DNA from: Escherichia coli 042
GTDB taxonomy: Bacteria > Pseudomonadota > Gammaproteobacteria > Enterobacterales > Enterobacteriaceae
NCBI RefSeq assembly: GCF_000027125.1
Contig: NC_017626.1
Strand: one strand, 5' to 3'
DNA: 64,000 nucleotides
The first letter of the stretch is position 1; every line of letters begins with the position of its first letter. Under the pieces are notes generated by a model. It was not told where the DNA came from. It was given only the letters and a program-made list of their open reading frames with translations, and made no database searches. A program made the translations under genes and the position numbers. This document shows positions 5,937-36,532 of this stretch, one piece after another.

Positions 5937-6467
5937 GAATCATTGACTCGCTGTAAAAAATTATGCATATATTATATATGATTGTCATGTCATATCCTGC
6001 AATTCCTCTTGTATCACTTCATGATTTTATATTTTATTAATTAACGATTTTATTTTGTATTAGCTGAATGGATTCAGTCCTATAGAGTTATATATTTATT
6101 AATAAGACGATTCTTATATTTTGATACCTAATAAGAGTTACCACTTTTACCGGCTGTATATTAAATGTATTTCTCTTGCTTTTGTTTATATTTTGAGTTG
6201 ATTTGAGTTCCTGGATACATATAATGCGCAGGTATTAGAGACTGGGGGGGAATGTAATGATAAAGTTAAGAGTGTTAACTTAAAATAAGTTTTCAGTAGT
6301 AACTTGCTATTTTATTACCCTCTGAACTACATACTCAGATATGTGGTTGCCAATGCTATGCAAAATTTTTGAATTTTTATATGCGATGAACAGTAACCGG
6401 AATGGCATTTAATGCGTTGCTGTTTATGCAATCTTGGTTTTATTTGGATGTATTGCTGGAGATTGTG

Positions 6468-9400
6468 ATGAATAAAATATATCGGCTAAAGTGGAACAGG
6501 TCCCGTAACTGTTGGAGCGTCTGCTCGGAGCTGGGGAGTAGAGTAAAAGGAAAAAAGTCCCGGGCTGTTTTAATTAGCGCGATAAGTTTATATTCATCTC
6601 TGGCACTGTCTAAAGATGTCGCTGTAAGTGAAGATTACACAGCTGTATTCGGTAAAGATAACCAGACTATTGATTACCGTATTTCAGTGACCGACAATGC
6701 CAATCTGGTAATCGATGCGACAGATTCTTCTCGTCCACGTCTGACTCTCGCGTCTGGTGGTGGGCTGGATATCACTGGAGGGAAGGTGCATATCAATGGC
6801 TCGCTTAACTTTTTGTTAAAAGGGACGGGGTTTCTGAACGTCGCCAATGCTGGCAGCGAGTTATATGCTGATGATTTATATGAGTCTTACTCTAATATTA
6901 CCCACGATAGAGGCTATTTTAATGTCTCCAACGGCGGCAAAATCCATGTTAAGGGCACCAGCCGTCTGACCTATTTGCAGGGAAATGTCAGCGGTGAAGG
7001 CAGCCAGGTAAATTCTAAAACCTTCTTTATGGGCGTTTACGGCAGTTACGGTGGCAATCAGTATCTGTCAGTTAATAACGGCGGTGAAGTTAATGCCAGT
7101 GAAAAAATTAGCCTAGGCTATTATGATCAAGTCTCCGATACAACACTTGCTGTTTCGGAAGGTGGTAAAATTTATGCGCCGACTATTAGTTTAAGCACCA
7201 ACTCTGAGTTAGCGTTAGGGGCACAGGAAGGAAGTGCTGCGAAGGCAGCAGGGATTATTGATGCCGAAAAAATTGAGTTTGTGTGGGCAAAGACATCCGA
7301 TAAGAAAATCACCTTAAATCACACGGATAAAAACGCGACTATTTCCGCGGATATTGTCAGTGGCAGCGAGGGCCTGGGCTATATCAATGCGCTCAATGGC
7401 ACGACTTACTTAACCGGGGATAACTCCGCCTTTAGCGGTAAAGTCAAAATTGAGCAAAATGGCGCTTTAGGGATCACCCAAAATATAGGTACAGCAGAAA
7501 TCACCAACCGCGGGAAATTACACCTGAAGGCTGACGATAGCATGACCTTTGCCAATAAGATTTCTGGCAACGGTACAATAAGTATCGACAGTGGGACAGT
7601 GACGCTGACTGGCAATAACTATGCATTCAGCGGATATATTGATGTCGCTTCTGGTGCTGTCGCGGTTATTTCTGAAGACAAGAACATCGGCCGTGCAGAA
7701 CTGGATGTTGATGGCAAATTGCAAATTAATGCCAACAAAGATTGGGTATTTGATAACGATCTTGAAGGTAGAGGCATTGTTGAAATAAACATGGGGAATC
7801 ACGAATTCTCCTTCGATGAGTTTGCCTATACAGACTGGTTCCAGGGTTCACTGGCGTTCCAGAACACGACATTTAACCTGGAAAAGAATGCTGAGTTTCT
7901 GCAGAGAGGCGGGATCACTGCGGGTCAGGGAAGCCAGGTAACAGTGGGTAAGGGCGCTCACTCCATTAGCACTTTGGGATTCTCCGGCGGAACGGTTGAT
8001 TTTGGTGCCCTGGCAGCTGGTGCACAGATGACAGAAGGGACAGTCAACGTTAGTAAAACGCTGGATTTGCGTGGCGAGGGTGTGATTCAGGTTTCTGACA
8101 GTGACGTTGTCCGCTCTGTATCTCGTGATATTGACTCTGCGTTATCGCTCACTGAAGTCGATGATGGTAACAGCACCATTAAGTTGGTTGATGCGCAAGG
8201 TGCGGAAGTTCTGGGCGATGCGGGCAATCTGCAATTGCAGGATAAAAATGGACAAATCTTCTCCAGCAGCGCCCAACGTGATATTCAGCAGAATGGGCAA
8301 AAAGCGGCCGTCGGCACTTACGACTATCGTCTGACGAGTGGGGTAAACAATGACGGTCTGTATATCGGTTACGGCCTGACCCAGCTTGAATTGCAGGCTA
8401 CCGACAGTGATGCCCTGGTGCTGAGTGCCAACGGTAAAAGCGAGAATGCCGCCGATCTTAGTGCAAAGATTACCGGCAGTGGTGACCTGGCCTTCAGCAG
8501 CCAGAAAGGTCAGACCGTATCGCTTTCTAACAAAGACAACGACTATACCGGTATTACCGATCTGCGCAGCGGGACGCTTTTGTTGAATAACGATAACGTG
8601 TTGGGTAATACCCATGAACTGCGTCTGGCGGCAGAGACTGAACTGGATATGAATGGTCACAGCCAGATCGTGGGCACGCTCAATGGCAGCGCCGATTCAC
8701 TGCTGAGCTTGAACGGCGGGAGTCTGACGGTTACCAACGGGGGCACTTCAACCGGTTCGTTAACGGGGAGCGGAGAGCTGAATATTCAGGGCGGCACGCT
8801 GGACATCGCGGGCGATAACAGCAACCTGACGGCGAATGTGAACATTGCTAATTCGGCTAATGTCCTGGTAAGTCATGCGCAGGGATTGGGTAGCGCAAAC
8901 GTTGAGAACAACGGTACCCTGGCGTTGAATAATAGCGCTGAAAAAAGAGCGGCTGCGTCTGTGAATTACACCCTGGGCGGCAATCTGACCAACAACGGTA
9001 CGCTGATGACCGGAATGTCAGGACAGCAAGCTGGCAATATGTTAGTGGTGAAGGGGAACTACCACGGTAATAACGGTCAACTAGTAATGAATACGGTACT
9101 GAATGGCGATGACTCAGTAACCGATAAATTGGTTGTCGAGGGCGATACTAGCGGCACGACTGCCGTTACGGTGAATAACGCTGGCGGTACAGGTGCGAAA
9201 ACCCTTAACGGTATCGAACTTATCCATGTTGACGGTAAGTCTGAGGGCGAATTCGTTCAGGCTGGGCGTATCGTTGCGGGGGCATATGACTACACTCTCG
9301 CGCGTGGACAAGGGGCAAATAGTGGTAACTGGTATCTGACCAGCGGCAGTGATTCTCCTGAACTGCAGCCGGAGCCAGACCCGATGCCGAATCCGGAGCC

Positions 9401-10451
9401 AAACCCGAATCCAGAGCCGAACCCTAACCCGACACCTACGCCGGGTCCGGATCTGAATGTGGATAATGACCTGCGACCGGAGGCGGGTAGCTACATTGCG
9501 AACCTTGCAGCAGCGAATACCATGTTCACCACGCGTCTGCATGAGCGTCTGGGTAATACGTACTATACCGACATGGTGACGGGTGAGCAGAAACAAACCA
9601 CTATGTGGATGCGCCATGAAGGTGGTCATAATAAATGGCGTGATGGCAGCGGCCAGCTGAAAACCCAAAGCAATCGCTATGTTCTGCAACTGGGAGGCGA
9701 TATCGCGCAGTGGAGCCAAAACGGCAGCGACAGCTGGCATGTTGGGGTCATGGCGGGATATGGCAACAGCGACAGCAAAACCATTTCCTCGCGAACTGGT
9801 TATCGTGCTAAAGCGAGTGTGAACGGATATAGCACAGGCCTCTATGCCACCTGGTATGCCGATGACGAGTCGCGTAATGGCGCGTATCTCGACAGTTGGG
9901 CGCAGTACAGCTGGTTTGATAACACAGTGAAAGGTGATGATTTACAAAGTGAATCCTATAAATCAAAAGGATTTACCGCTTCACTGGAAGCTGGATACAA
10001 ACACAAATTAGCTGAATTTAATGGCAGCCAGGGAACGCGTAATGAATGGTATGTTCAGCCGCAAGCACAGGTTACCTGGATGGGAGTCAAAGCCGATAAG
10101 CACCGCGAAAACAATGGAACCCTCGTTCATAGCAACGGTGATGGCAATGTTCAAACCCGACTTGGCGTAAAAACCTGGCTGAAGAGCCACCATAAAATGG
10201 ATGACGGTAAATCCCGCGAGTTCCAGCCGTTTGTAGAAGTGAACTGGCTGCATAACAGTAAGGATTTCAGCACCAGTATGGATGGCGTGTCCGTCACTCA
10301 GGATGGAGCCCGAAATATTGCTGAGATAAAAACCGGGGTGGAAGGACAGCTAAATGCCAACCTGAATGTCTGGGGGAATGTGGGCGTTCAGGTTGCCGAT
10401 AGGGGATATAATGACACCTCTGCAATGGTTGGCATTAAGTGGCAATTCTGA
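6468..10451 (+). CDS. ehaA: AIDA-I-type (type Va) autotransporter adhesin, 1327 aa, EhaA-like
   Basis: ORF 6402..10451; start set at ATG 6468 (MNKIYRLKWNRSRNCWSVCSELG... extended autotransporter signal peptide) with GGAGA 6 nt upstream; repetitive Gly/Thr/Asn-rich passenger; Pro-rich PEPDPMPNPEPNPNPEPNPNPTPTPGP linker; C-terminal beta-barrel ending ...GIKWQF. Gene symbol is from memory of the EHEC autotransporter at this locus and is uncertain. Confidence 0.8.
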   Translation: MNKIYRLKWNRSRNCWSVCSELGSRVKGKKSRAVLISAISLYSSLALSKDVAVSEDYTAVFGKDNQTIDYRISVTDNANLVIDATDSSRPRLTLASGGGLDITGGKVHINGSLNFLLKGTGFLNVANAGSELYADDLYESYSNITHDRGYFNVSNGGKIHVKGTSRLTYLQGNVSGEGSQVNSKTFFMGVYGSYGGNQYLSVNNGGEVNASEKISLGYYDQVSDTTLAVSEGGKIYAPTISLSTNSELALGAQEGSAAKAAGIIDAEKIEFVWAKTSDKKITLNHTDKNATISADIVSGSEGLGYINALNGTTYLTGDNSAFSGKVKIEQNGALGITQNIGTAEITNRGKLHLKADDSMTFANKISGNGTISIDSGTVTLTGNNYAFSGYIDVASGAVAVISEDKNIGRAELDVDGKLQINANKDWVFDNDLEGRGIVEINMGNHEFSFDEFAYTDWFQGSLAFQNTTFNLEKNAEFLQRGGITAGQGSQVTVGKGAHSISTLGFSGGTVDFGALAAGAQMTEGTVNVSKTLDLRGEGVIQVSDSDVVRSVSRDIDSALSLTEVDDGNSTIKLVDAQGAEVLGDAGNLQLQDKNGQIFSSSAQRDIQQNGQKAAVGTYDYRLTSGVNNDGLYIGYGLTQLELQATDSDALVLSANGKSENAADLSAKITGSGDLAFSSQKGQTVSLSNKDNDYTGITDLRSGTLLLNNDNVLGNTHELRLAAETELDMNGHSQIVGTLNGSADSLLSLNGGSLTVTNGGTSTGSLTGSGELNIQGGTLDIAGDNSNLTANVNIANSANVLVSHAQGLGSANVENNGTLALNNSAEKRAAASVNYTLGGNLTNNGTLMTGMSGQQAGNMLVVKGNYHGNNGQLVMNTVLNGDDSVTDKLVVEGDTSGTTAVTVNNAGGTGAKTLNGIELIHVDGKSEGEFVQAGRIVAGAYDYTLARGQGANSGNWYLTSGSDSPELQPEPDPMPNPEPNPNPEPNPNPTPTPGPDLNVDNDLRPEAGSYIANLAAANTMFTTRLHERLGNTYYTDMVTGEQKQTTMWMRHEGGHNKWRDGSGQLKTQSNRYVLQLGGDIAQWSQNGSDSWHVGVMAGYGNSDSKTISSRTGYRAKASVNGYSTGLYATWYADDESRNGAYLDSWAQYSWFDNTVKGDDLQSESYKSKGFTASLEAGYKHKLAEFNGSQGTRNEWYVQPQAQVTWMGVKADKHRENNGTLVHSNGDGNVQTRLGVKTWLKSHHKMDDGKSREFQPFVEVNWLHNSKDFSTSMDGVSVTQDGARNIAEIKTGVEGQLNANLNVWGNVGVQVADRGYNDTSAMVGIKWQF

Positions 10452-11722: not shown

Positions 11723-12655
11723 TTAATTCTCCCGATGCAGTAAATCCTGATAGATCCCCGTTAATATGCCATTTGGCGCAAATTGTTTTTTAATCCACTG
11801 CGTCACCTGACCCGTAGCAGAATGCTGAGTCGCCAGTAACATGCGCGAATCCTGGCGCGGATTATGGATTTGTCGGGTAACCAGCAGGGATTGCGTCATC
11901 GCCTCACGGACCATGTAATCCGGCAAAAACCCAATTCCTTCACCTAAAATCTGGCACTGACATTTGGTGTTGAAATCTGGCACCAGAATCGACTCCTGCC
12001 CATGCAGCAACCAGCCCACTTTTTTATTAATCGTATGCGCGGTGTCCTCCACCATGATATTAGGATAGAGACGCAGTTGGCTTTCGGCGATCGGCTCCGG
12101 CACAAAGGCTAATGGGTGATCCGGGGCGATAGCAAAAGCCCAGCGAATTGCGCCAATCTCCGTGTAATCAATGCCGCCGCCGTCCAGCAGTGTGTCGGGC
12201 GCGCCGATAGCAATATTCGCCTGATTATTAATAATCGCATCCCAGACGCCGTTATACACTTCGGTCGTCACGGTAATCTGGCAGGTTGGAAACTGCTTTT
12301 TCAGTACCTGTAATAAGCGTGCGGTGTGTTTGGGCGTATAAAGCAGTTGGTTAATACAAATGCGCACCCGTGCTTCTATACCCTGCGAAATAGTATCGAT
12401 GCTGCGTTTGATGGCGTGAAAATCATTCAGCAGGTCGGTAGCTTTGCGGAAAAAATAACGCCCGGACTCCGTTAACTCAATGCTTCGGGTACTGCGAGTG
12501 AACAGCACCACATCCAGCCCTGTTTCCATTCGCTTGATGGTGTAGCTAATGGCGGAAGTGGTTAAACCCAACTCTTCTGCGGCTTTACTGAAACTGCCAA
12601 AACGCGCAGCGGTAGTAAATGCCAACAGATTCTCTTCGGTAAAAATTGAGTTCAT
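11723..12655 (-). CDS. yahB: LysR-family transcriptional regulator
   Basis: 310-aa ORF; N-terminal HTH (FSKAAEELGLTTSAISYTIKRME) and LysR substrate-binding domain. Confidence 0.88.
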   Translation of the reverse strand: MNSIFTEENLLAFTTAARFGSFSKAAEELGLTTSAISYTIKRMETGLDVVLFTRSTRSIELTESGRYFFRKATDLLNDFHAIKRSIDTISQGIEARVRICINQLLYTPKHTARLLQVLKKQFPTCQITVTTEVYNGVWDAIINNQANIAIGAPDTLLDGGGIDYTEIGAIRWAFAIAPDHPLAFVPEPIAESQLRLYPNIMVEDTAHTINKKVGWLLHGQESILVPDFNTKCQCQILGEGIGFLPDYMVREAMTQSLLVTRQIHNPRQDSRMLLATQHSATGQVTQWIKKQFAPNGILTGIYQDLLHREN

Positions 12656-12746
12656 TAAACCATTCCCGCCATTATCGAATATGAATTTCTCCAGCCATGA
12701 CTGTAGAGGTATCGGTTAAAGATAGATAATCATTTTTGAATAACTT

Positions 12747-13244
12747 TTAATACCCGTCGCGTTTAGTCGTCGCTTCGCTTAATTTTTGTCCGCCATATTC
12801 TGAAATTATCCCCACGCAGTTACCCGCCAGAAAACCCAGTAATGTCACTGTCCAGTTCATCCCGCTGGCAAAAAATAGCGTCATGCCGAGAAAGCCTCCG
12901 GGAATAAAAGACAATAAACCGAAACGTCCTTGCCAGACCACCACCGCCGAGAAGGGTACAGTCATAATCACGCTCGCCCAGAACGTGGACAATCCACTCA
13001 CCGAGGCCAGCCAGCCGGCAGCCAGCGCGGCGAAAAACGCCCACACCATCCCGGAATAATTAACCGCCAGACTTCTGATAAACCCCGATTTACCGCCGCC
13101 TGCGGCATAAAAACTGCAAAAGGCGACGAAGCCAATGGTTCCTAATAATTCCCATCCCTGAGAGAGCCCGACATGTGAAGACACTAACTGCCAAAGCCCT
13201 GCACAAATACCGACGGTGACACCCGTTGCCGTGAGTCCGTTCAT
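12747..13244 (-). CDS. yahC: small hydrophobic inner-membrane protein
   Basis: 165-aa ORF, strongly hydrophobic (multiple predicted TM helices). Confidence 0.8.
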   Translation of the reverse strand: MNGLTATGVTVGICAGLWQLVSSHVGLSQGWELLGTIGFVAFCSFYAAGGGKSGFIRSLAVNYSGMVWAFFAALAAGWLASVSGLSTFWASVIMTVPFSAVVVWQGRFGLLSFIPGGFLGMTLFFASGMNWTVTLLGFLAGNCVGIISEYGGQKLSEATTKRDGY

Positions 13245-13501
13245 CTTGTTCCCCTCTGGTTAGACATGGACGAAAGCTACTCTTACATGTGCAGACTATA
13301 GAGAAATAAAACCTGATTGAGTGAAAGGGTATCGGGTCAAAGAAACAAATATTGCACTACCGCACACTGCGAAAAGATTGTTGAACATCATTCAACAAAA
13401 AGGCGAAATACGGCGAATTAAATTTAAGCGGGTTCTTTTATCAGATTATCGTTGCTATTCTCAATTCATCGAAAACAGCCACAAAAACCAGGGGAATGTG
13501 A

Positions 13502-14107
13502 ATGACTATAAAAAATCTACCTGCCGACTATTTATTGGCTGCGCAACAGGGTGATATCGATAAAGTAAAAACCTGCCTTGCGCTGGGTGTCGATATTAAT
13601 ACCTGCGATCGTCAGGGGAAAACGGCAATTACGCTGGCAAGTTTATATCAGCAATATGCTTGCGTTCAGGCATTAATTGATGCCGGAGCGGATATTAATA
13701 AGCAAGATCAAATATGTTCAAATCCTTTTTTAATTAGCTGCCTGACCGGCGATTTAACCCTGTTACGGATTATTTTATCGGCTAAACCCGATCTTAATTG
13801 CGTCACCCGTTTTGGCGGTGTCGGCCTGACGCCTGCCTGTGAAAAAGGCCATTTAAGTATTGTAAAAGAGCTTTTGGCGCATACGGAGATTAACGTTAAC
13901 CAGACCAACCATGTTGGCTGGACGCCGCTACTGGAAGCAATTGTGCTTAATGATGGCGGGATTAAACAGCAGGCGATTGTCCAGTTATTGCTGGAACACG
14001 GTGCCAGCCCGCACATGACGGATAAATATGGCAAAACGCCGCTGGAACTGGCGCGGGAACGAGGCTTTGAAGAGATTGCGCAGTTACTGATTGCCGCAGG
14101 TGCATAA
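13502..14107 (+). CDS. yahD: ankyrin-repeat protein
   Basis: 201-aa ORF with repeated ankyrin-like motifs (GKTAITLAS..., GLTPACEKGHLSIVKELL, GWTPLLEAI, GKTPLELARERGFEEIAQLL). Confidence 0.85.
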   Translation: MTIKNLPADYLLAAQQGDIDKVKTCLALGVDINTCDRQGKTAITLASLYQQYACVQALIDAGADINKQDQICSNPFLISCLTGDLTLLRIILSAKPDLNCVTRFGGVGLTPACEKGHLSIVKELLAHTEINVNQTNHVGWTPLLEAIVLNDGGIKQQAIVQLLLEHGASPHMTDKYGKTPLELARERGFEEIAQLLIAAGA

Positions 14108-14146
14108 ACCGGGAGGCTTGCTATCAACACACCAGAAAGACGGTGT

Positions 14147-15010
14147 GTGTGGGCGCTAACTGCGGATGCTGATTTTCTGGCGCAGCGGGGGCAAGGACAG
14201 GTTGAACAGGTCTTTGCCAGAGCGGTAAATATCGCACTTCCGGCCCGCCAGCAGTTGCTGACGCTGCTTTGTGAAGAGTACGACAATGCGCCAAACAGTT
14301 GTCGGTTGGCACTCACTCACTTTGATGATCTGTTCCGGCATGGTGATAAGGTTCAGTTTGACGATCAAGGCATTACGGTTGGTCAACATCTTCATATAGA
14401 GATGAGTCGTTGTCGGCGTTGGCTGTCCCCAACCTTGCAAATGACCGCTGTGAATTTTCACCTTATCGCCTGGCAACAGTGGCATGACATTATTCATCAG
14501 CACCTGGGGGAAAATGAAACCCTGTTTAATTATCGCGGCGATAATCCGTTTTATCAGGCGTTAAATAAAGAATTACATATTAAACGACAGGCAGTTATTC
14601 AGGCAGTAAACGATAAACAAAATATCGCCTCAGCGGTCGTCAGTATGATGGGCTTAGGGATTGGCCTTACGCCATCAGCCGACGATTATTTAACAGGTCT
14701 GGCGCTTATTTTATTTATTTCCGGACATCCGTCGGAAAAATACAAAGAGGAATTTTATCTCGGTCTGCAACGCGGCAGAAATAATACCACGTTATTAAGT
14801 GCCATAACGCTGGAAGCCGCATTACAACAACGCTGCCGGGAAAATATTCATCGTTTTATTCATAACATTATTTATGACATCCCTGGGAACGCAACTCAGG
14901 CAATAGAAAAAATTAAACATATTGGCTCCAGTTCCGGCTGCGACATGCTGTATGGCATGGCCGATGGTTGTGCGCTGAGCCAAACCTACGGAGGGAATTA
15001 TGTCAGTTAA
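14147..15010 (+). CDS. yahE: DUF2877-family protein (YlbF-like)
   Basis: 287-aa ORF with GTG start; overlaps yahF start by 11 bp. Confidence 0.8.
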   Translation: MWALTADADFLAQRGQGQVEQVFARAVNIALPARQQLLTLLCEEYDNAPNSCRLALTHFDDLFRHGDKVQFDDQGITVGQHLHIEMSRCRRWLSPTLQMTAVNFHLIAWQQWHDIIHQHLGENETLFNYRGDNPFYQALNKELHIKRQAVIQAVNDKQNIASAVVSMMGLGIGLTPSADDYLTGLALILFISGHPSEKYKEEFYLGLQRGRNNTTLLSAITLEAALQQRCRENIHRFIHNIIYDIPGNATQAIEKIKHIGSSSGCDMLYGMADGCALSQTYGGNYVS

Positions 15011-16547
15011 AATAGTCATTAAACCGAATACCTATTTTGATTCTGTCTCGCTGATGTCTATCTCCACGCGTGCAAATAAACTCGACGGCGTCGAGCAGGC
15101 ATTTGTGGCGATGGCGACCGAAATGAACAAAGGCGTACTGAAGAATTTAGGGCTGCTGACGCCGGAGCTGGAGCAGGCGAAAAACGGCGACCTGATGATT
15201 GTCATTAACGGCAAAGCGGGCGCAGACAACGAGCAGTTGCTGGTGGAGATTGAAGAACTGTTCAACACCAAAGCGCAAAGCGGCTCGCACGAGGCGCGTT
15301 ACGCCACTATTGCCAGCGCCAAAAAGCATATCCCGGAAAGTAACCTGGCGGTGATTTCGGTCAACGGTCTGTTTGCTGCTCGCGAAGCGCGTCAGGCACT
15401 GCAAAACGATCTTAACGTGATGCTGTTTTCCGATAACGTCTCAGTTGAAGATGAACTGGCGCTCAAACAACTGGCCCACGAAAAAGGGCTGCTGATGATG
15501 GGGCCAGACTGCGGCACGGCGATTATCAACGGCGCGGCGCTCTGCTTTGGTAACGCCGTGCGTCGCGGCAACATCGGTATTGTTGGCGCATCTGGCACCG
15601 GCAGCCAGGAGCTGAGCGTCCGTATCCATGAATTTGGCGGCGGCGTTTCGCAACTGATTGGCACCGGCGGGCGCGACCTGAGCGAGAAAATCGGCGGCCT
15701 GATGATGCTCGACGCCATCGGGATGCTGGAAAACGATCCGCAAACTGAAATCATTGTGCTTATCTCCAAACCGCCTGCGCCTGCGGTGGCCCGCAAAGTG
15801 CTGGAACGCGCACGTGCCTGCCGCAAGCCGGTGGTGGTCTGCTTCCTCGGTCGTGGCGAAACGCCAGTGGATGAGCAGGGGCTACAGTTTGCCCGCGGCA
15901 GTAAAGAGGCGGCATTGAAAGCGGTGATGCTCTCCGGCGTGAAACAGGAACATCTCGAGCTGCATACGCTGAACCAGTCGTTGATTGCTGACGTGCGCGC
16001 TCGCCTGCAACCGCAGCAGAAATACATTCGTGGCCTGTTCTGCGGCGGTACGCTGTGTGACGAAACCATGTTCGCGGTGATGGAAAAACATGGCGATGTC
16101 TACAGCAATATTCAGCCCGATCCTGAATTCCGCCTGCAAGATATCAACCGCAGCATCAAACACACCTTCCTCGACTTTGGCGATGACGACTTCACCAACG
16201 GCAAGCCGCATCCAATGATTGACCCGACCAACCGTATCAGCCGCTTGATCGAAGAGGCGCGCGATCCAGAAGTGGCGGTGATCGTGATGGATTTTGTGCT
16301 CGGATTTGGATCGCATGAAGATCCGGTCGGTTCCACCATCGAGGCGATCAAAGAGGCGAAAGCGATCGCCGCTGCCGAAGGACGTGAGTTGATCATTCTC
16401 GCCTATGTGCTGGGTACCGATCTTGATACGCCATCATTAGAACAACAAAGCCAGATGCTGCTTGATGCCGGAGTGATTCTGGCAAGCAGCAGCACCAATA
16501 CCGGATTGCTGGCGCGTGAATTTATCTGCAAAGGGGAGGAAGCCTGA
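15000..16547 (+). CDS. yahF: FdrA-like protein with CoA-binding / succinyl-CoA-synthetase-like fold
   Basis: 515-aa ORF, GGAGGG RBS, Gly-rich nucleotide-binding motifs (GIVGASGTGSQE). Confidence 0.85.
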   Translation: MSVKIVIKPNTYFDSVSLMSISTRANKLDGVEQAFVAMATEMNKGVLKNLGLLTPELEQAKNGDLMIVINGKAGADNEQLLVEIEELFNTKAQSGSHEARYATIASAKKHIPESNLAVISVNGLFAAREARQALQNDLNVMLFSDNVSVEDELALKQLAHEKGLLMMGPDCGTAIINGAALCFGNAVRRGNIGIVGASGTGSQELSVRIHEFGGGVSQLIGTGGRDLSEKIGGLMMLDAIGMLENDPQTEIIVLISKPPAPAVARKVLERARACRKPVVVCFLGRGETPVDEQGLQFARGSKEAALKAVMLSGVKQEHLELHTLNQSLIADVRARLQPQQKYIRGLFCGGTLCDETMFAVMEKHGDVYSNIQPDPEFRLQDINRSIKHTFLDFGDDDFTNGKPHPMIDPTNRISRLIEEARDPEVAVIVMDFVLGFGSHEDPVGSTIEAIKEAKAIAAAEGRELIILAYVLGTDLDTPSLEQQSQMLLDAGVILASSSTNTGLLAREFICKGEEA

Positions 16548-17965
16548 TGAGCCAGTCACTGTTTAGCCAACCGTTGAACGTTATTAACGTCGGCATCGCC
16601 ATGTTTAGCGATGATCTGAAAAAGCAGCATGTAGAAGTGACCCAACTCGACTGGACGCCGCCGGGGCAGGGCAATATGCAGGTGGTGCAGGCGCTGGACA
16701 ACATTGCCGATTCCCCGCTGGCGGACAAAATCGCCTCCGCGAATCAGCAGGCGCTGGAGCGCATTATTCAGTCACATCCGGTGCTGATTGGTTTTGATCA
16801 GGCGATTAACGTGGTGCCGGGCATGACGCCGAAAACCATTCTTCACGCCGGGCCGCCGATCACCTGGGAAAAAATGTGCGGTGCGATGAAAGGCGCGGTC
16901 ACCGGGGCGCTGGTGTTCGAAGGGCTGGCGAAAGATCTCGACGAGGCGGCTGAACTGGCGGCCTCCGGGGAGATCTCCTTCTCGCCGTGCCACGAACATG
17001 ACTGCGTGGGATCGATGGCTGGTGTTACCTCGGCCTCGATGTTTATGCACATCGTAAAAAACAAAACCTACGGCAACATCGCTTACACCAATATGAGCGA
17101 GCAGATGGCGAAGATTTTGCGTATGGGCGCTAACGACCAGAGCGTGATTGACCGCCTCAACTGGATGCGCGATGTGCAGGGGCCCATGCTGCGCGACGCG
17201 ATGAAAATTATCGGCGAGATCGATCTGCGCTTGATGCTGGCGCAGGCGCTGCATATGGGCGATGAATGCCATAACCGCAATAACGCCGGGACTACGCTGC
17301 TGATTCAGGCGCTGACGCCGGGGATTATTCAGGCGGGCTATTCCGTCGAGCAACAGCGCGAAGTGTTTGAGTTTGTCGCCAGCAGCGACTACTTCTCCGG
17401 CCCGACGTGGATGGCGATGTGTAAAGCGGCGATGGATGCGGCGCACGGCATCGAATACAGCACCGTGGTGACCACGATGGCGCGTAACGGCGTCGAGTTC
17501 GGCCTGCGGGTCAGCGGATTACCGGGGCAGTGGTTTACCGGTCCGGCGCAGCAGGTGATCGGCCCGATGTTTGCCGGTTATAAGCCGGAAGATTCTGGAT
17601 TGGATATTGGCGACAGTGCCATCACCGAAACCTACGGTATTGGCGGATTTGCTATGGCGACCGCGCCTGCAATCGTCGCGCTGGTGGGCGGTACGGTGGA
17701 AGAGGCTATCGATTTCTCCCGTCAGATGCGCGAAATCACTCTCGGCGAAAACCCCAACGTCACCATTCCGCTGCTCGGTTTTATGGGCGTGCCGTCGGCA
17801 ATCGACATCACCCGCGTGGGCAGTAGCGGCATTCTGCCAGTGATCAACACCGCCATCGCTCATAAAGATGCGGGCATCGGCATGATTGGCGCGGGCATTG
17901 TGCATCCACCATTCGCCTGCTTCGAAAAAGCCATTCTTGGCTGGTGCGAACGTTACGGCGTCTGA
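16547..17965 (+). CDS. yahG: DUF1116-family protein (YlbE-like)
   Basis: 472-aa ORF; start overlaps yahF stop (TGATGA). Confidence 0.82.
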   Translation: MSQSLFSQPLNVINVGIAMFSDDLKKQHVEVTQLDWTPPGQGNMQVVQALDNIADSPLADKIASANQQALERIIQSHPVLIGFDQAINVVPGMTPKTILHAGPPITWEKMCGAMKGAVTGALVFEGLAKDLDEAAELAASGEISFSPCHEHDCVGSMAGVTSASMFMHIVKNKTYGNIAYTNMSEQMAKILRMGANDQSVIDRLNWMRDVQGPMLRDAMKIIGEIDLRLMLAQALHMGDECHNRNNAGTTLLIQALTPGIIQAGYSVEQQREVFEFVASSDYFSGPTWMAMCKAAMDAAHGIEYSTVVTTMARNGVEFGLRVSGLPGQWFTGPAQQVIGPMFAGYKPEDSGLDIGDSAITETYGIGGFAMATAPAIVALVGGTVEEAIDFSRQMREITLGENPNVTIPLLGFMGVPSAIDITRVGSSGILPVINTAIAHKDAGIGMIGAGIVHPPFACFEKAILGWCERYGV

Positions 17966-17988
17966 CCTGCAAAGTGCGCGTTGTCTCT

Positions 17989-18161
17989 GCCGGATGCGGC
18001 GTGAACGCCTTATCCGGCCTACGAGTGGCGCGAGAATCTGTAGGCCTGATAAGCGTAGCGCATCAGGCATTTGTCACCATTGCCGGATGCGGCGTGAACG
18101 CCTTATCCGGCCTACGAATGGCACGAGAATTCTAGGCCTGATAAGCGTAGCGCATCAGGCA
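17989..18161. repeat. BIME: four alternating REP palindromes
   Basis: gccggatgcggcgtgaacgccttatccggcctacg and gtaggcctgataagcgtagcgcatcaggca units, each present twice. Confidence 0.9.
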
Positions 18162-18210
18162 GTCTGGCGTTGGTCATAACCCCATCACCCTCTGTAGCGG
18201 ACATAACAAC

Positions 18211-19161
18211 ATGAAAGAACTTGTGGTCGTTGCCATTGGTGGCAACAGCATTATCAAAGATAACGCCAGCCAGTCGATTGAGCATCAGGCGGAGGCGGTG
18301 AAAGCCGTGGCCGATACGGTGCTGGAAATGCTGGCTTCCGATTACGACATTGTGCTGACCCACGGCAACGGGCCGCAGGTCGGGCTGGATTTACGCCGTG
18401 CGGAGATTGCCCACGAGCGTGAAGGGCTGCCCTTAATGCCGCTGGCGAACTGTGTGGCAGATACGCAAGGCGGCATTGGCTACTTGATCCAGCAGGCGCT
18501 GAACAACCGACTGGCGCGTCACAGCGAGAAAAAAGCCGTCACCGTGGTGACTCAGGTGGAAGTGGATATAAACGATCCGGGTTTTGCTCATCCCACCAAG
18601 CCCATCGGCGCATTCTTCAGTGAAAGCCAGCGTGACGAATTACAAAAGGCAAACCCTGACTGGCGTTTTGTTGAAGATGCCGGACGGGGCTATCGCCGCG
18701 TGGTCGCCTCGCCGGAACCGAAACGTATTGTCGAGGCACCTGCCATTAAGGCGCTGATCCAACAAGGCTTTGTCGTAATTGGTGCGGGCGGCGGTGGAAT
18801 TCCGGTAGTGCGTACTGACGCGGGGGATTACCAAAGCGTGGACGCGGTTATCGACAAAGATCTCTCTACCGCGCTGCTGGCCCGTGAAATTCACGCCGAC
18901 ATTCTGGTGATCACCACCGGCGTCGAAAAAGTCTGTATTCACTTTGGCAAGCCGCAGCAGCAGGCGCTGGATCGGGTGGATATTGCCACCATGACCCGCT
19001 ATATGCAGGAAGGGCATTTCCCGCCTGGCAGCATGTTGCCAAAAATCATCGCCAGCCTGGCGTTCCTGGAACAGGGCGGCAAAGAAGTGATTATCACCAC
19101 GCCGGAATGCCTGCCTGCGGCGCTGCGTGGTGAAACGGGCACCCACATTATTAAAACGTAA
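18211..19161 (+). CDS. yahI: carbamate kinase-like protein
   Basis: 316-aa ORF, amino-acid kinase fold (MKELVVVAIGGNSI...). Confidence 0.85.
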   Translation: MKELVVVAIGGNSIIKDNASQSIEHQAEAVKAVADTVLEMLASDYDIVLTHGNGPQVGLDLRRAEIAHEREGLPLMPLANCVADTQGGIGYLIQQALNNRLARHSEKKAVTVVTQVEVDINDPGFAHPTKPIGAFFSESQRDELQKANPDWRFVEDAGRGYRRVVASPEPKRIVEAPAIKALIQQGFVVIGAGGGGIPVVRTDAGDYQSVDAVIDKDLSTALLAREIHADILVITTGVEKVCIHFGKPQQQALDRVDIATMTRYMQEGHFPPGSMLPKIIASLAFLEQGGKEVIITTPECLPAALRGETGTHIIKT

Positions 19162-19170
19162 GGACGTAAG

Positions 19171-20550
19171 ATGAAAGAAAACAATAGCCGCCGTGAATTT
19201 CTGAGCCAGAGCGGTAAGATGGTCACCGCCGCCGCGCTGTTTGGTACCTCTGTGCCGCTCGCCCATGCGGCAGTCTCTGGCACAACCCACTGCGACGCGA
19301 ATAACACCATGAAAATCACTGACCCGCACTACTATCTCGACAACGTGCTGCTGGAAACCGGTTTTGACTACGAAAATGGCGTGGCGGTACAGACCCGCAT
19401 GGCGCGCCAGACCGTGGAGATTCAGGACGGTAAAATTGTTGCCCTGCGCGAGAACAAGCAGCATCCGGACGCCACGCTGCCGCACTATGACGCTGGCGGT
19501 AAGCTGATGCTGCCCACCACCCGCGACATGCATATTCATCTCGACAAAACCTTCTACGGCGGGCCGTGGCGCTCGCTCAATCGTCCGGCAGGCACCACTA
19601 TCCAGGACATGATCAAACTCGAGCAGAAAATGCTGCCGGAACTGCAACCGTACACTCAGGAACGAGCGGAAAAACTGATCGATTTATTGCAGTCGAAAGG
19701 CACCACCATTGCCCGCAGCCACTGCAATATCGAACCGGTTTCCGGCCTGAAAAATCTGCAAAATTTGCAGGCGGTGCTGGCGCGACGTCAGGCGGGCTTC
19801 GAGTGTGAAATTGTCGCCTTCCCGCAGCACGGTTTGCTGCTGTCGAAATCGGAACCCTTAATGCGCGAAGCGATGCAGGCAGGGGCGCATTACGTCGGCG
19901 GGCTGGACCCAACCAGTGTTGATGGCGCGATGGAAAAATCCCTCGACACCATGTTCCAGATTGCGCTGGACTACGACAAAGGCGTCGATATTCACCTACA
20001 CGAAACCACTCCGGCAGGCGTGGCAGCCATCAATTATATGGTTGAAACGGTAGAGAAAACGCCACAGCTGAAGGGCAAGCTGACCATCAGCCACGCCTTT
20101 GCGCTGGCAACGCTCAATGAGCAACAGGTAGATGAACTGGCGCACCGGATGGCGGCGCAGCAAATTTCTATCGCCTCGACGGTGCCGATTGGCACGTTGC
20201 ATATGCCGCTCAAACAACTGCACGACAAAGGCGTAAAAGTTATGACCGGCACCGACAGCGTTATCGACCACTGGTCGCCTTACGGCCTGGGCGACATGCT
20301 GGAAAAAGCCAATCTGTACGCGCAGCTCTATATTCGTCCTAACGAACAGAACCTCTCCCGCTCGCTGTTTTTAGCCACTGGCGATGTATTGCCGCTCAAC
20401 GAAAAAGGCGAGCGCGTGTGGCCCAAAGCGCAGGATGACGCCAGTTTTGTGCTGGTGGACGCCTCCTGTTCCGCCGAGGCGGTGGCGCGTATCTCGCCGA
20501 GAACGGCAACGTTCCATAAAGGACAACTGGTGTGGGGGAGTGTGGTGTAA
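19171..20550 (+). CDS. yahJ: Tat-exported amidohydrolase / deaminase (CodA-like metal-dependent hydrolase)
   Basis: 459-aa ORF; N-terminal SRREFLSQ twin-arginine motif followed by a hydrophobic stretch; HIHLD metal-binding motif. Confidence 0.85.
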   Translation: MKENNSRREFLSQSGKMVTAAALFGTSVPLAHAAVSGTTHCDANNTMKITDPHYYLDNVLLETGFDYENGVAVQTRMARQTVEIQDGKIVALRENKQHPDATLPHYDAGGKLMLPTTRDMHIHLDKTFYGGPWRSLNRPAGTTIQDMIKLEQKMLPELQPYTQERAEKLIDLLQSKGTTIARSHCNIEPVSGLKNLQNLQAVLARRQAGFECEIVAFPQHGLLLSKSEPLMREAMQAGAHYVGGLDPTSVDGAMEKSLDTMFQIALDYDKGVDIHLHETTPAGVAAINYMVETVEKTPQLKGKLTISHAFALATLNEQQVDELAHRMAAQQISIASTVPIGTLHMPLKQLHDKGVKVMTGTDSVIDHWSPYGLGDMLEKANLYAQLYIRPNEQNLSRSLFLATGDVLPLNEKGERVWPKAQDDASFVLVDASCSAEAVARISPRTATFHKGQLVWGSVV

Positions 20551-20669
20551 CGTTATCAGCGAGGATATCCGGGCAGGCACTATTCCGATTTTAAAACCCG
20601 ATATCCTCTGCGTTTTGCCCATGACGTACACTGCGGATTATCTTTTTTATCCAGGGATGGATAGACGCC

Positions 20670-21317
20670 GTGAAATTTCTTTGGTTATCGCTGTTGTTTC
20701 TGAGTCAGGCCGTCCTGGCAACTTGCCCTGCTGGAAATTCACAACACGAATGCGAGGCGGTGCGCATACAGCCCCTGGTCACGCCGGAGCAGAAAAAAGA
20801 TGCCTTAACGCAATTGCAAAAGTTTCAGCAAGCGCTGAGTGCAAAGAATGCCACGAAACTAAAAACCTTCTTAAAATTCCCCTACGATACCTATTTCGGC
20901 TTTCTCGCTGAGATTGAGTTGCCTGAATCTGAACCCTTCACAGAAGCACTATTTGATCGCCATTCAGAAACCATTATGCGGCGTCTGCATAATGTCACAA
21001 AATTCACGATACATCCGGGTACCCAATGGATTGATGATTATCTCAGTCATTCGCTGACGCCAGCGGAGCAAAAAAGAAAATATTATCCCCTCAATGATGG
21101 ACGTTTCTATTACGAAGAGAAAGGGGAGCGCCACTACGTCACGGGAATATGTGAACTGGCGATGTCGGGGAATATTTCTGACGATGGCATTACGCTGAAT
21201 ATTGGTTCGCAGGCTAATGAACAAATTCCACCGGCTGTTTGTGATGGCACAACTATACTGGAATTTGGCATGATTAACGGGCAGTTAAAGTTATTGCGTG
21301 TTTCTTTTGCGGGGTAA
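20670..21317 (+). CDS. hypothetical exported protein or lipoprotein, 215 aa
   Basis: GTG-initiated ORF, no upstream ATG in frame; N-terminus MKFLWLSLLFLSQAVLATC is a typical signal peptide (possible lipobox LATC); four Cys in the mature part; I do not recall an annotated K-12 gene between yahJ and yahK. Confidence 0.5.
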   Translation: MKFLWLSLLFLSQAVLATCPAGNSQHECEAVRIQPLVTPEQKKDALTQLQKFQQALSAKNATKLKTFLKFPYDTYFGFLAEIELPESEPFTEALFDRHSETIMRRLHNVTKFTIHPGTQWIDDYLSHSLTPAEQKRKYYPLNDGRFYYEEKGERHYVTGICELAMSGNISDDGITLNIGSQANEQIPPAVCDGTTILEFGMINGQLKLLRVSFAG

Positions 21318-21588
21318 ACGGCGTGTGCGTAATAATTGAATTTCACGGCAGTCTAATTCGCCAGTCACGATACCGCCCCGGTTTTAAGGCGGAAAAGGGA
21401 TATCGCTGGTGCCAGAAAGTGTGATCTGCCACGAAAAACGACACCACTATTGGTCATTAAACTCTCCGGTATCAACGTCTCAGAGCCCATCACGGGCAAC
21501 CATTCATTGGCTATATTGAATGAGCGAGTTTTGCTGCAAAGACGTTCCTCACATCATCCAGATACCTCTTCGAACAGGAGTGAATGCA

Positions 21589-33999: not shown

Positions 34000-35259
34000 G
34001 TGTCGCAAGATAACAACTTTAGCCAGGGGCCAGTCCCGCAGTCGGCGCGGAAAGGGGTATTGGCATTGACGTTCGTCATGCTGGGATTAACCTTCTTTTC
34101 CGCCAGTATGTGGACCGGCGGCACTCTCGGAACCGGTCTTAGCTATCATGATTTCTTCCTCGCAGTCCTCATCGGTAATCTTCTCCTCGGTATTTACACT
34201 TCATTTCTTGGTTACATTGGCGCAAAAACCGGCCTGACCACCCATCTTCTTGCTCGCTTCTCGTTTGGTGTTAAAGGCTCATGGCTGCCTTCACTGCTGC
34301 TGGGGGGTACCCAGGTTGGCTGGTTTGGCGTTGGCGTGGCGATGTTTGCCATTCCGGTGGGTAAGGCAACCGGGCTGGATATTAATTTGCTGATTGCCGT
34401 TTCCGGTTTACTGATGACCGTCACCGTCTTCTTTGGCATTTCGGCGCTGACGGTTCTTTCGGTGATTGCGGTTCCGGCTATCGCCTGTCTTGGCGGTTAT
34501 TCCGTGTGGCTGGCCGTTAACGGCATGGGCGGCCTGGACGCATTAAAAGCGGTCGTTCCTGCACAACCGCTAGATTTCAATGTCGCGCTGGCGCTGGTTG
34601 TGGGGTCATTTATCAGCGCGGGTACGCTCACCGCTGACTTTGTCCGGTTTGGTCGCAATGCCAAACTGGCGGTGCTGGTGGCGATGGTGGCCTTTTTCCT
34701 TGGCAACTCGTTGATGTTTATTTTCGGTGCAGCGGGAGCGGCGGCACTGGGCATGGCAGATATCTCTGATGTGATGATTGCTCAGGGCCTGCTGCTACCC
34801 GCGATTGTGGTGCTGGGGCTGAATATCTGGACCACCAACGATAACGCGCTCTATGCGTCGGGCTTAGGTTTCGCCAACATTACCGGTATGTCGAGCAAAA
34901 CCCTTTCGGTGATTAACGGTATTATCGGTACGGTCTGCGCACTATGGCTGTATAACAATTTTGTCGGCTGGCTGACCTTCCTTTCGGCAGCTATTCCTCC
35001 GGTAGGGGGCGTGATCATCGCCGACTATCTGATGAACCGTCGCCGCTATGAGCACTTTGCGACCACGCGTATGATGAGTGTCAATTGGGTGGCGATTCTG
35101 GCGGTCGCCTTGGGGATTGCCGCAGGCCACTGGTTACCGGGAATTGTTCCGGTCAACGCGGTATTAGGTGGCGCGCTGAGCTATCTGATCCTTAACCCGA
35201 TTTTGAATCGTAAAACGACAGCAGCAATGACGCATGTGGAGGCTAACAGTGTCGAATAA
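34000..35259 (+). CDS. codB: cytosine permease
   Basis: 419-aa ORF with GTG start ([14 protein letters not shown]...), NCS1-family membrane protein. Confidence 0.92.
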
Positions 35260-36532
35260 CGCTTTACAAACAATTATTAACGCCCGGTTACCCGGCAAAG
35301 AGGGGCTGTGGCAGATTCATCTGCAGGACGGAAAAATCAGCGCCATTGATGCGCAATCTGGTGTGATGCCCGTAACTGAAAACAGCCTGGATGCCGAACA
35401 AGGTTTAGTTTTACCGCCGTTTGTGGAGCCGCATATTCACCTGGACACCACGCAAACCGCCGGGCAACCGAACTGGAATCAGTCCGGCACGCTGTTTGAA
35501 GGCATTGAACGCTGGGCCGAGCGCAAAGCGTTATTAACCCATGACGATGTGAAACAACGCGCATGGCAAACGCTGAAATGGCAGATTGCCAACGGCATTC
35601 AGCATGTGCGTACCCATGTCGATGTTTCCGACGCAACGCTGACTGCGTTGAAAGCGATGCTGGAAGTGAAACAGGAAGTTGCGCCGTGGATTGATCTGCA
35701 AATCGTCGCCTTCCCGCAGGAAGGGATTTTGTCGTATCCCAACGGTGAAGCGTTGCTGGAAGAGGCGCTACGCTTAGGAGCAGACGTTGTTGGGGCGATT
35801 CCGCATTTTGAATTTACCCGTGAATATGGCGTGGAGTCGCTGCATAAAACCTTCGCCCTGGCGCAAAAATACGACCGTCTCATCGACGTTCACTGTGATG
35901 AGATCGATGATGAGCAGTCGCGCTTTGTCGAAACCGTTGCCGCCCTGGCGCACCGTGAAGGAATGGGCGCACGAGTCACCGCCAGCCATACTACGGCAAT
36001 GCACTCCTATAACGGGGCGTATACCTCACGCCTGTTCCGCCTGCTGAAAATGTCCGGTATTAACTTTGTCGCCAACCCGTTGGTCAATATTCATCTACAA
36101 GGGCGTTTCGATACGTATCCAAAACGTCGCGGCATCACGCGCGTTAAAGAGATGCTGGAGTCAGGCATTAACGTCTGCTTTGGTCACGATGATGTCTTCG
36201 ATCCGTGGTATCCGCTGGGAACGGCGAATATGCTGCAAGTGCTGCATATGGGGCTGCATGTTTGCCAGCTGATGGGCTACGGGCAGATTAACGACGGCCT
36301 GAATTTAATCACCCACCACAGCGCCAGGACGTTGAATTTGCAGGATTACGGCATTGCCGCCGGAAACAGCGCCAACCTGATTATCCTGCCGGCTGAAAAT
36401 GGATTTGATGCGCTGCGCCGTCAGGTTCCGGTACGTTATTCGGTACGTGGCGGCAAGGTGATTGCCAGCACACAACCGGCACAAACCACCGTATATCTGG
36501 AGCAGCCAGAAGCCATCGATTACAAACGGTGA
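35249..36532 (+). CDS. codA: cytosine deaminase
   Basis: ORF 35234..36532; conserved start is GTG 35249 ([15 protein letters not shown]), overlapping the codB stop by 11 bp; HIHLD amidohydrolase motif. Confidence 0.92.

Follow-up and report, generated by a model that had tools for sequence, protein, structure and literature searches.

The region described here is a cluster of eight genes, yahB to yahJ, in Escherichia coli 042 (NCBI RefSeq assembly GCF_000027125.1, contig NC_017626.1). It lies within a 64,000-nucleotide stretch of that contig, referred to as the window. An earlier interpretation made from the letters alone, the sequence-only reading, had placed eight open reading frames here, and all were found at exactly the positions it gave. 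Its family names (LysR, ankyrin, DUF2877, FdrA-like, DUF1116, carbamate kinase and amidohydrolase) agree with the annotation of E. coli chromosomes, which also assigns yahC to DUF1097, and with NCBIfam and Pfam scans. The strands of the frames likewise confirm that yahB and yahC are divergent from yahD-yahJ, as had been claimed. The positions of the genes, and of conserved features between them, are collected in Table 1.

Table 1. Genes and conserved features of the yahB-yahJ region; positions are those of the window.
Feature	Position	Strand	Description
yahB	11723-12655	-	LysR-type regulator, AllS paralogue; presumed activator of yahD-J
yahC	12747-13244	-	Small polytopic membrane protein, DUF1097; candidate importer of the Escherichia-type layout
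Control region 5' of yahD	13350-13461	+	Conserved sequence blocks
TGCAC-N4-GCAC	13353-13366		Conserved block upstream of yahD
Palindrome ATTGTTGAA-N5-TTCAACAA	13377-13398		Conserved block upstream of yahD
GAAT..TTTAAGCGG	13412-13433		Conserved block upstream of yahD
TTGCTATTCT	13452-13461		Conserved block; read as a putative extended -10
yahD	13502-14107	+	Ankyrin-repeat protein; first gene of the operon; putative accessory subunit peculiar to the yah lineage
yahE	14147-15010	+	AllH-like (DUF2877) subunit
yahF (fdrA)	15000-16547	+	AllF/FdrA-like subunit; succinyl-CoA-synthetase-alpha-like fold
yahG	16547-17965	+	AllG-like (DUF1116) subunit
Two tandem REP units (former 'yahH')	17988-18161	.	Slot used for a transporter gene in other genera
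yahI	18211-19161	+	Carbamate kinase family protein
yahJ	19171-20550	+	Tat-signal amidohydrolase, CodA/AtzC (deaminase) type

The cluster is well kept in the species. The yahB-J stretch matches E. coli chromosomes over its full length at 97.9% identity, best identities to complete E. coli genomes are about 98-99%, and 5005 of the 5426 complete E. coli genomes (92%) contain yahD-yahG at a coverage of at least 80%. YahG is 99% identical to its homologues in Escherichia whittamii and another Escherichia species. All eight genes are under purifying selection and are not decaying: the ratio of nonsynonymous to synonymous substitution rates (dN/dS) is 0.02-0.26 against Kluyvera, Citrobacter, and Providencia where dS is unsaturated. 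A value of 0.80 for YahF against E. albertii was disregarded as an alignment artefact of a draft contig. A 2024 y-ome survey lists the cluster as uncharacterised (PMC11551758), and neither full-text literature searches nor targeted reading turned up functional work on a yah gene.

The best guide to the function of these genes is their likeness to the all genes. The sequence-only reading had set yahE, yahF, yahG and yahI in parallel with ylbF, fdrA, ylbE and ybcF of the allantoin region, and pairwise BLASTP alignment against the K-12 ALL cluster bears this out (25-46% identity, every E-value 1e-10 or lower). YahF is 39% identical to AllF (FdrA; E 6e-103), YahG 46% to AllG (YlbE; E 4e-120), YahE 25% to AllH (YlbF; E 1e-10) and YahI 38% to AllK (YbcF; E 1e-57), while the regulator YahB is 39% identical to K-12 AllS (E 5e-73). 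The role that it gave these relatives, an oxamate carbamoyltransferase working with a carbamate kinase, was correct and is published (PMC11326118, PMC9843812). Purified AllF-AllG-AllH is an oxamic transcarbamylase that converts oxalurate and phosphate to carbamoyl phosphate and oxamate (PMC11326118, 2024), ybcF/AllK is a catabolic carbamate kinase (PMC9843812), and AllS activates the allF operon, allFGHK (PMC12535856). The yah genes go unmentioned in all three papers. The homology has nevertheless reached the databases: some RefSeq records name YahE 'oxamate carbamoyltransferase subunit AllH family protein', the Pfam families are now AllF_N, AllG and AllH, and HMA_AllF_N/Ligase_CoA, AllG and AllH are recorded on yah orthologues.

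As judged by homology, YahF, YahG and YahE are the three separate subunits that characterise an AllFGH-type oxamate carbamoyltransferase, and a carbamate kinase gene stands in the same operon, with yahI 245 bp 3' of yahG on the same strand. The two systems therefore have FdrA-like, DUF1116 and DUF2877 subunits, a same-operon carbamate kinase and a regulator of the same LysR subfamily in common, but they differ in several ways. The gene order is H-F-G-K in yah and F-G-H-K in all. A 45-residue module is carried by YahG in the one system and by AllF in the other: residues 8-52 of YahG correspond to the last 45 residues of the FdrA model, so that the module sits at the C terminus of AllF and at the N terminus of YahG. 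Unlike the all set, the yah set includes an ankyrin subunit, an amidohydrolase of deaminase type with a twin-arginine translocation (Tat) signal and a dedicated membrane protein, has no link to the allantoin genes (the K-12 ALL cluster, with allB, allC, allD and allE, is a separate locus) and belongs to a separate, far more conserved lineage. At other yah-type loci the Pfam lists, as read, hold no family specific to allantoinase or allantoate amidohydrolase, although no dedicated search was made. Nor are the Yah subunits orthologues of AllF, AllG and AllH, since YahG shares 46% identity with AllG and 76-88% with YahG orthologues in other phyla.

The spread of this lineage can be seen from YahG. 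Within Enterobacterales its orthologues share 86-99% identity; the figure is 88% for Aeromonas, 79% for Janthinobacterium and 76-77% for Brevibacillus, Paenibacillus and Psychrobacillus. Clustering of a library at 50% identity leaves one representative for the entire YahG lineage, and no other DUF1116 representative exceeds 49% identity to it. By these comparisons the yah set is a separate, old, tightly conserved and widely distributed lineage, and in view of its conservation across phyla the reading of the cluster as a recent or local duplicate of allFGHK was rejected. A solved structure that is itself uncharacterised, PDB 3clq, belongs to the same lineage (about 72% identical to YahG, E 1.4e-195); it is possibly an Enterococcus faecalis protein. 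A genome scan over one-genome-per-species contigs found relatives at 491 places. Eighty-four loci were tabulated by tblastn, and the 59 with complete flanks (enterobacterial and Aeromonas) were used for presence counts. YahB, YahD, YahF, YahG, YahI and YahJ are each encoded in 59 of the 59, and the same core with a carbamate kinase recurs in Brevibacillus, Janthinobacterium and Peribacillus. The sequence-only reading thus had the homology right and left the picture incomplete, having missed this old and widespread lineage, the place of yahD and yahJ among its conserved parts, the predicted periplasmic location of YahJ and the interchangeability of yahC.

Some copies of the cluster differ in the company they keep or in their degree of conservation. 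In Pseudocitrobacter (loci L010 and L011) YahF, YahG, YahI and YahJ are 96-99% identical to those of the window, compared with 72% for YahD, 55-58% for YahE and 72-74% for YahC, a mosaic suggestive of recombination or transfer, with the breakpoint between yahE and yahF. A conjugative IncF plasmid of E. coli (L097:3638-12071) carries, between IS1 and IS100, a yah cluster of the type with a 517-residue membrane protein gene (described below), with YahG 90% identical and without yahJ. YahG copies at 90-95% identity occur in about 68 plasmid records.

Among the core subunits, YahF reaches 492 bits against a cut-off of 433 for the NCBIfam FdrA subfamily and matches the FdrA structure PDB 3dmy (E 8e-83). 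YahE has a confident predicted model (predicted local distance difference test, pLDDT, 91.4) with no solved relative, and its motif GLGxGLTPxxDD is invariant. It is missing from 15 Enterobacter-group loci and from Jeotgalibaca. YahD matches ankyrin-repeat models only. Its gene is directly 5' of the AllH/AllF/AllG-like genes in all 59 loci, and also in Brevibacillus, Janthinobacterium, Aeromonas, Trichococcus and Jeotgalibaca; the Peribacillus locus and the locus that encodes PDB 3clq lack it. Subunits also occur fused. YahE and YahF form a single 817-residue protein in Zophobihabitans entericus (L065, in the reading frame upstream of the YahG match), a 795-residue Ligase_CoA-AllG protein was confirmed, and proteins of about 1000 residues with a C-terminal DUF1116 domain exist, which may be read as F-G fusions from that domain alone. 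Because of the E-F fusion, the F-G-type fusions and the exchange of the 45-residue module between AllF and YahG, the Yah subunits probably interact physically. Since YahE and YahD are lost in some lineages and subunits occur fused, F and G would be the conserved core, with D and E apparently accessory subunits of a single complex.

The two remaining enzymes of the cluster can be placed by their catalytic residues and family scores. YahI scores 641 bits against a cut-off of 266 for the NCBIfam carbamate kinase subfamily NF009007, and 347.7, just under the 358.25 cut-off, for the stricter arcC equivalog TIGR00746. It aligns over its full length with the solved carbamate kinases 1e19 (E 1.4e-81) and 1b7b (E 8e-73), its GGN, HGNGPQVG and DKD segments falling into register with those of 1e19. 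These matches place YahI in the carbamate kinase family. YahJ has Amidohydro_3 and Amidohydro_1 Pfam domains, and its nearest solved structures are the AtzC-named 6nbo (E 4e-44), AtzC 2qt3 (E 3e-30) and CodA (E 1e-17 to 1e-21). For its active site the window's own CodA (35234-36532) served as reference; this cytosine deaminase gene is on the same strand, about 15 kb downstream of yahJ. All of the CodA residues H61, H63, Q156, H214, E217, H246 and D313 have aligned equivalents in YahJ, namely HIH for H61/H63, AFPQ for Q156, IHLHE for H214/E217, SHA for H246 and TDS for D313; the acidic residue of the deaminase site is Asp in Firmicute homologues. Because every CodA catalytic residue has an equivalent, YahJ is, by alignment, a deaminase-type rather than a ring-opening enzyme. 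A ring-opening hydantoinase or allantoinase was considered and rejected, as the strong matches and the catalytic residues are of CodA/AtzC type and the hydantoinase model matches only at E 1.6e-5 over 60 residues. YahJ shares the amidohydrolase fold, metal ligands and catalytic residues of CodA and of AtzC (N-isopropylammelide isopropylaminohydrolase). Unlike them it has a Tat signal, belongs to the unnamed subfamily PRK06846 (its best family, 713 bits) and falls under every cytosine deaminase cut-off (72-103 bits against NCBIfam cut-offs of 403-483), which places it outside that family proper.

The N terminus of YahJ in the window, SRREFLSQSGKMVTAAALFGTSVPLAHA, has the twin-arginine motif, hydrophobic stretch and AxA cleavage site of a predicted Tat signal, and all 75 proteobacterial orthologues have RR-x-F-[LI]; Firmicute homologues have no signal at all. 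YahJ has been listed among E. coli Tat substrates, and a delta-yahJ mutant of extraintestinal pathogenic E. coli (ExPEC) had a mild competitive disadvantage in mice (competitive index 0.70, p 0.02; PMC7549933). The gene is directly 3' of yahI in each of the 59 complete loci. Trichococcus and Peribacillus each have two homologues, at 36-44% identity, next to the core, and the Brevibacillus locus has instead a small deaminase of cytidine-deaminase fold and a PucR regulator.

Loci differ in the membrane protein that they encode. In 12 of the 59 there is a yahC, whose product has several membrane-spanning segments by hydropathy, and no gene between yahG and yahI; this layout is seen in Escherichia, Kluyvera, Raoultella, Pseudocitrobacter, Citrobacter amalonaticus and Klebsiella spallanzanii. 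The other 47 have no yahC and carry, between yahG and yahI, a gene for a 517-residue polytopic membrane protein. The two are perfectly exclusive, with no locus having both and none having neither. This slot is occupied by an NCS1 permease in Brevibacillus (best match the allantoin permease model, 435 bits, under its cut-off of 620) and by an unannotated membrane protein of 393-397 residues in Peribacillus, Trichococcus and the 3clq locus. Because four unrelated membrane proteins share one position, we argue that they would transport the pathway's substrate. The 517-residue protein has no sequence match in Pfam, NCBIfam or PDB. Its AlphaFold model is poor (pLDDT 51.6), and the Foldseek matches of that model, all to 7+7-fold transporters (SLC26, BicA, AZG and UraA), are only a hint. 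Members of its family, 512-534 residues long (L006:11540-13093 in Aeromonas, L005:11656-13209, L090:5743-7287 and L097:9532-11082), are 78-89% conserved in Proteobacteria and 55% identical in Jeotgalibaca, always inside yah-type clusters. The 393-397-residue family (L087:11198-12379, L088:11485-12669 and L089:11892-13085) has about 9-10 hydrophobic segments and is encoded directly 3' of the AllG-like gene in Firmicute clusters. Its L087 and L088 copies are 68% identical; the 397-residue Peribacillus protein gave no BLASTP match to the L087 copy at E 1e-3, and its membership is assumed from size and position. In the window, the 245-bp gap between yahG and yahI holds no gene, only two tandem repetitive extragenic palindromic (REP) units, with direct repeats of 50 and 29 nt spaced 92-93 nt apart. 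Per E. coli genome, the REP stretch has a median of 32 matches, and it is because of these units that the yahG-yahI region matches dozens of places per genome; the former yahH has been described as 'filled with REP23 sites' (PMC11551758).

Control of the operon can be approached through its regulator and the DNA upstream of yahD. The best NCBIfam match of YahB is AllS (268 bits, under the 372 cut-off), with PunR next, and YahB is by this measure a paralogue of AllS and not AllS itself. An upstream alignment of 18 loci, from Escherichia to Aeromonas and Janthinobacterium, shows the conserved blocks listed in Table 1, among them the palindrome, a perfect 8-nt inverted repeat with a 5-nt spacer (TTGTTGAA-N5-TTCAACAA) that was also found independently of the alignment. 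We infer that the palindrome is a putative YahB (LysR) operator and TTGCTATTCT a putative extended -10. A sigma-70 consensus scan of the yahC-yahD spacer gave no match, and the footprint was taken instead from the cross-genus alignment.

Other sets of H-F-G genes give an indication of what such enzymes may cleave. A third paralogous set is found in the tkt1 island of ExPEC (E. coli APEC O1, L096:5797-13993), in the order cysteine hydrolase (BiuH/RutB-like), DUF2877, FdrA, DUF1116, carbamate kinase, allophanate-hydrolase-related protein, cytosine-type permease and LysR. Its proteins are 42-48% identical to the Yah proteins, and its distance to the yah proteins is about the same as to the all proteins (33-48%). 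A fourth set, on IncHI2 plasmids (Klebsiella aerogenes, L098:1452-10168), has a ring-opening amidohydrolase of the cyanuric-acid-hydrolase (AtzD)/barbiturase family, an NCS2 permease, H-F-G and a carbamate kinase; these are conjugative plasmids of several genera. In a metagenomic nearest outgroup (L091:7614-11428), an AtzD-family gene directly precedes F-G. Both the tkt1 and the IncHI2 sets, at 42-48% identity to the Yah proteins, resemble yah in having H-F-G followed by carbamate kinase, and the tkt1 set also in its LysR gene; each has a nucleobase-type permease. They are unlike yah in their feeder enzymes, and neither has an ankyrin protein or YahJ. Since AllFGH acts on oxalurate and the other H-F-G sets adjoin ureide-type hydrolases, the context suggests that the AllFGH-type family cleaves small N-acylureas.

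Homology and gene context support the earlier suggestion of a pathway that would cleave a carbamoyl or ureido compound and recover ATP. The reading we consider probable is that yah encodes a deaminase, an importer, a phosphorolytic carbamoyltransferase and a carbamate kinase acting in one pathway, the catalytic steps, their order and the role of the membrane protein being deduced from homologies, conserved linkage, an export signal, retained catalytic residues and purifying selection. YahJ would act first, in the periplasm after Tat export, deaminating a carbamoyl-amidine or guanidino-type precursor to give an acylurea motif; by analogy, a CodA/AtzC-type deamination of a cytosine-like carbamoyl-amidine would create just such a motif. 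The product would be imported by YahC, or by the 517-residue protein in most other genera and an NCS1 permease or the membrane protein of about 395 residues in Bacilli. YahF and YahG would then form the catalytic core, with YahE and the ankyrin protein YahD as accessory subunits, and would use phosphate to cleave the carbamoyl group off a small ureide, most probably an N-acylurea resembling oxalurate, yielding carbamoyl phosphate and an amide or amine. YahI would convert carbamoyl phosphate and ADP to ATP, ammonia and CO2, and YahB would control the operon from the conserved palindrome upstream of yahD.

Several points weigh against this pathway. In the literature searched, no experiment links a yah gene to carbamoyl transfer and no paper assigns a function. 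When a delta-allF strain was grown anaerobically on allantoin, its crude lysate had no oxalurate-forming activity on high-performance liquid chromatography (PMC11326118), which implies that the yah genes were either not expressed, or inactive on oxalurate, under those conditions. The parts of the system are not constant, as the Janthinobacterium, Aeromonas allosaccharophila and Brevibacillus loci have no YahJ, Trichococcus, Jeotgalibaca and the 3clq locus have no adjacent carbamate kinase gene, and YahE or YahD is missing in the lineages named above. If the precursor were a heterocycle, a CodA/AtzC-type enzyme, which deaminates and opens no rings, would leave a ring-opening step unaccounted for.

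Known pathways offer a comparison for this logic. The arginine and agmatine deiminase pathways combine a deiminase with a catabolic transcarbamylase for ornithine or putrescine, a carbamate kinase and an antiporter. The proposed yah pathway would resemble them in converting an amidino or guanidino group to a ureido group, in phosphorolysis to carbamoyl phosphate, in substrate-level ATP formation and in having a dedicated membrane protein. Only the carbamate kinase is homologous, however: the yah transcarbamylase is predicted to be of AllFGH type, not of the aspartate or ornithine transcarbamylase fold, and the yah deaminase is of the amidohydrolase superfamily and predicted to be periplasmic, unlike in the deiminase pathways. 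In E. coli, ygeW-yqeA pairs a putative carbamoyltransferase with a carbamate-kinase-like protein for anaerobic urate use (PMC12623156). The likeness to yah is that a carbamoyltransferase candidate is paired with a carbamate kinase paralogue for nitrogen-heterocycle catabolism; unlike yah, YgeW is a single gene of classical transcarbamylase fold (PMC11326118), with no FdrA, DUF1116 or DUF2877 proteins.

A bolder version can be put forward only tentatively. Here yah would be a deiminase-type, ATP-yielding pathway in which a carbamoyl-amidine or acyl-guanidine undergoes CodA/AtzC-like deamination in the periplasm, the imported acylurea is split by a four-component, ankyrin-containing phosphorylase, and YahI makes ATP. 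Candidate precursors would be an oxidised-guanine breakdown product (oxalyl-guanidine or an imino-ureide), guanylurea or an ammelide-like ring. The module would be an ancient one, 76-88% identical across Proteobacteria and Firmicutes and also present on conjugative plasmids.

Alternatively, YahEFG may be a second oxamate transcarbamylase that acts on oxalurate itself, with oxalurate or its precursor parabanate taken up from outside and not made from allantoin. This would account for the homology of all three subunits and the kinase to AllFGH and AllK. In Streptococcus faecalis an oxalurate-inducible transcarbamylase has been described together with a carbamate kinase of its own, and in a Streptococcus the inducer of the enzyme is parabanic acid (refs 22 and 23 cited in PMC11326118), a precedent that fits a yah-lineage enzyme if 3clq is enterococcal; at the 3clq locus, however, neither the 8 kb downstream nor the 10 kb upstream holds a carbamate kinase. 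The weak, low-confidence fold matches of the 517-residue protein are mainly to the anion transporters SLC26 and BicA, with AZG and UraA further down, and would suit an anionic substrate. Against this, identity between the yah and the all proteins of a single genome is only 25-46%, whereas YahG keeps 76-88% across phyla, a pattern typical of distinct specificities, and the conserved, predicted periplasmic deaminase and the ankyrin subunit are left unexplained. The delta-allF lysate also argues against it, although yah may not have been induced. On balance we regard a second oxalurate enzyme, the main alternative, as unlikely, and the deaminase-first pathway remains our preferred reading.

Much less can be said for a system with no carbamoyl transfer at all, in which YahF would be an acyl-CoA synthetase, as in its RefSeq name, and YahI would phosphorylate or dephosphorylate another acyl phosphate. 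YahF does have CoA_binding and Ligase_CoA domains and a succinyl-CoA synthetase alpha match (E 1e-17), and the nearest-outgroup F-G pairs lie beside ferredoxin, dehydrogenases and peptidases, as if the family were functionally diverse. In the alignment, however, the phosphohistidine of SucD (GHAGA loop) is replaced by Tyr in YahF and by Phe in AllF, and no beta (ATP-grasp) subunit is encoded in the cluster or nearby. For these reasons YahF was rejected as a true CoA ligase, and the RefSeq name is unlikely to fit its chemistry. As the sole characterised member of the three-subunit family is a transcarbamylase (PMC11326118) and YahI lies far above the carbamate kinase cut-off, we think this alternative very improbable. 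Least credible of all is a silent remnant in Escherichia, its transporter gene replaced by REP elements and its pathway no longer working, for although the REP units do occupy the slot of the 517-residue protein gene and no phenotype or inducer is on record for K-12 (PMC11551758), the eight reading frames are intact and constrained, yahD-G are kept in most complete genomes, delta-yahJ ExPEC is at a disadvantage in mice (PMC7549933), and the layout without the 517-residue protein gene always has yahC and is common to several genera, which points to replacement rather than loss.

The neighbours of the cluster are betT, pdeL and yahK. Between betT and pdeL the window has a 1349-residue reading frame (6402-10451) that by eye resembles an AIDA-type autotransporter, with a repetitive passenger sequence and a beta-barrel-like C-terminal end; E. 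coli N3 has only about 0.8 kb there. That strain has in turn a 5.5-kb insertion between yahJ and yahK (L001:14823-20297), absent from the window (20545-21575), which carries an ASCH-domain gene and an autoinducer-2-type ATP-binding cassette transporter.

The homology on which this analysis builds is already encoded in databases, and with the enzyme type known since 2024 yah is not a new category. The yah system does have an architecture of its own, and no function is assigned to it in the literature searched. Three protein families can be flagged as lacking annotation, namely the 517-residue membrane protein, the membrane protein of about 395 residues and the AllH fold. If the proposed pathway is true, eight adjacent, near-core genes of E. 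coli would gain a concrete and testable role, and the three-subunit transcarbamylase described in 2024 would prove to be the first known member of a modular family of enzymes. Enterobacterial chromosomes and plasmids hold at least four paralogous sets, each coupled with a different ureide-generating hydrolase. Such a system would point to a nitrogen and energy source of gut and soil bacteria that lies outside current metabolic models.

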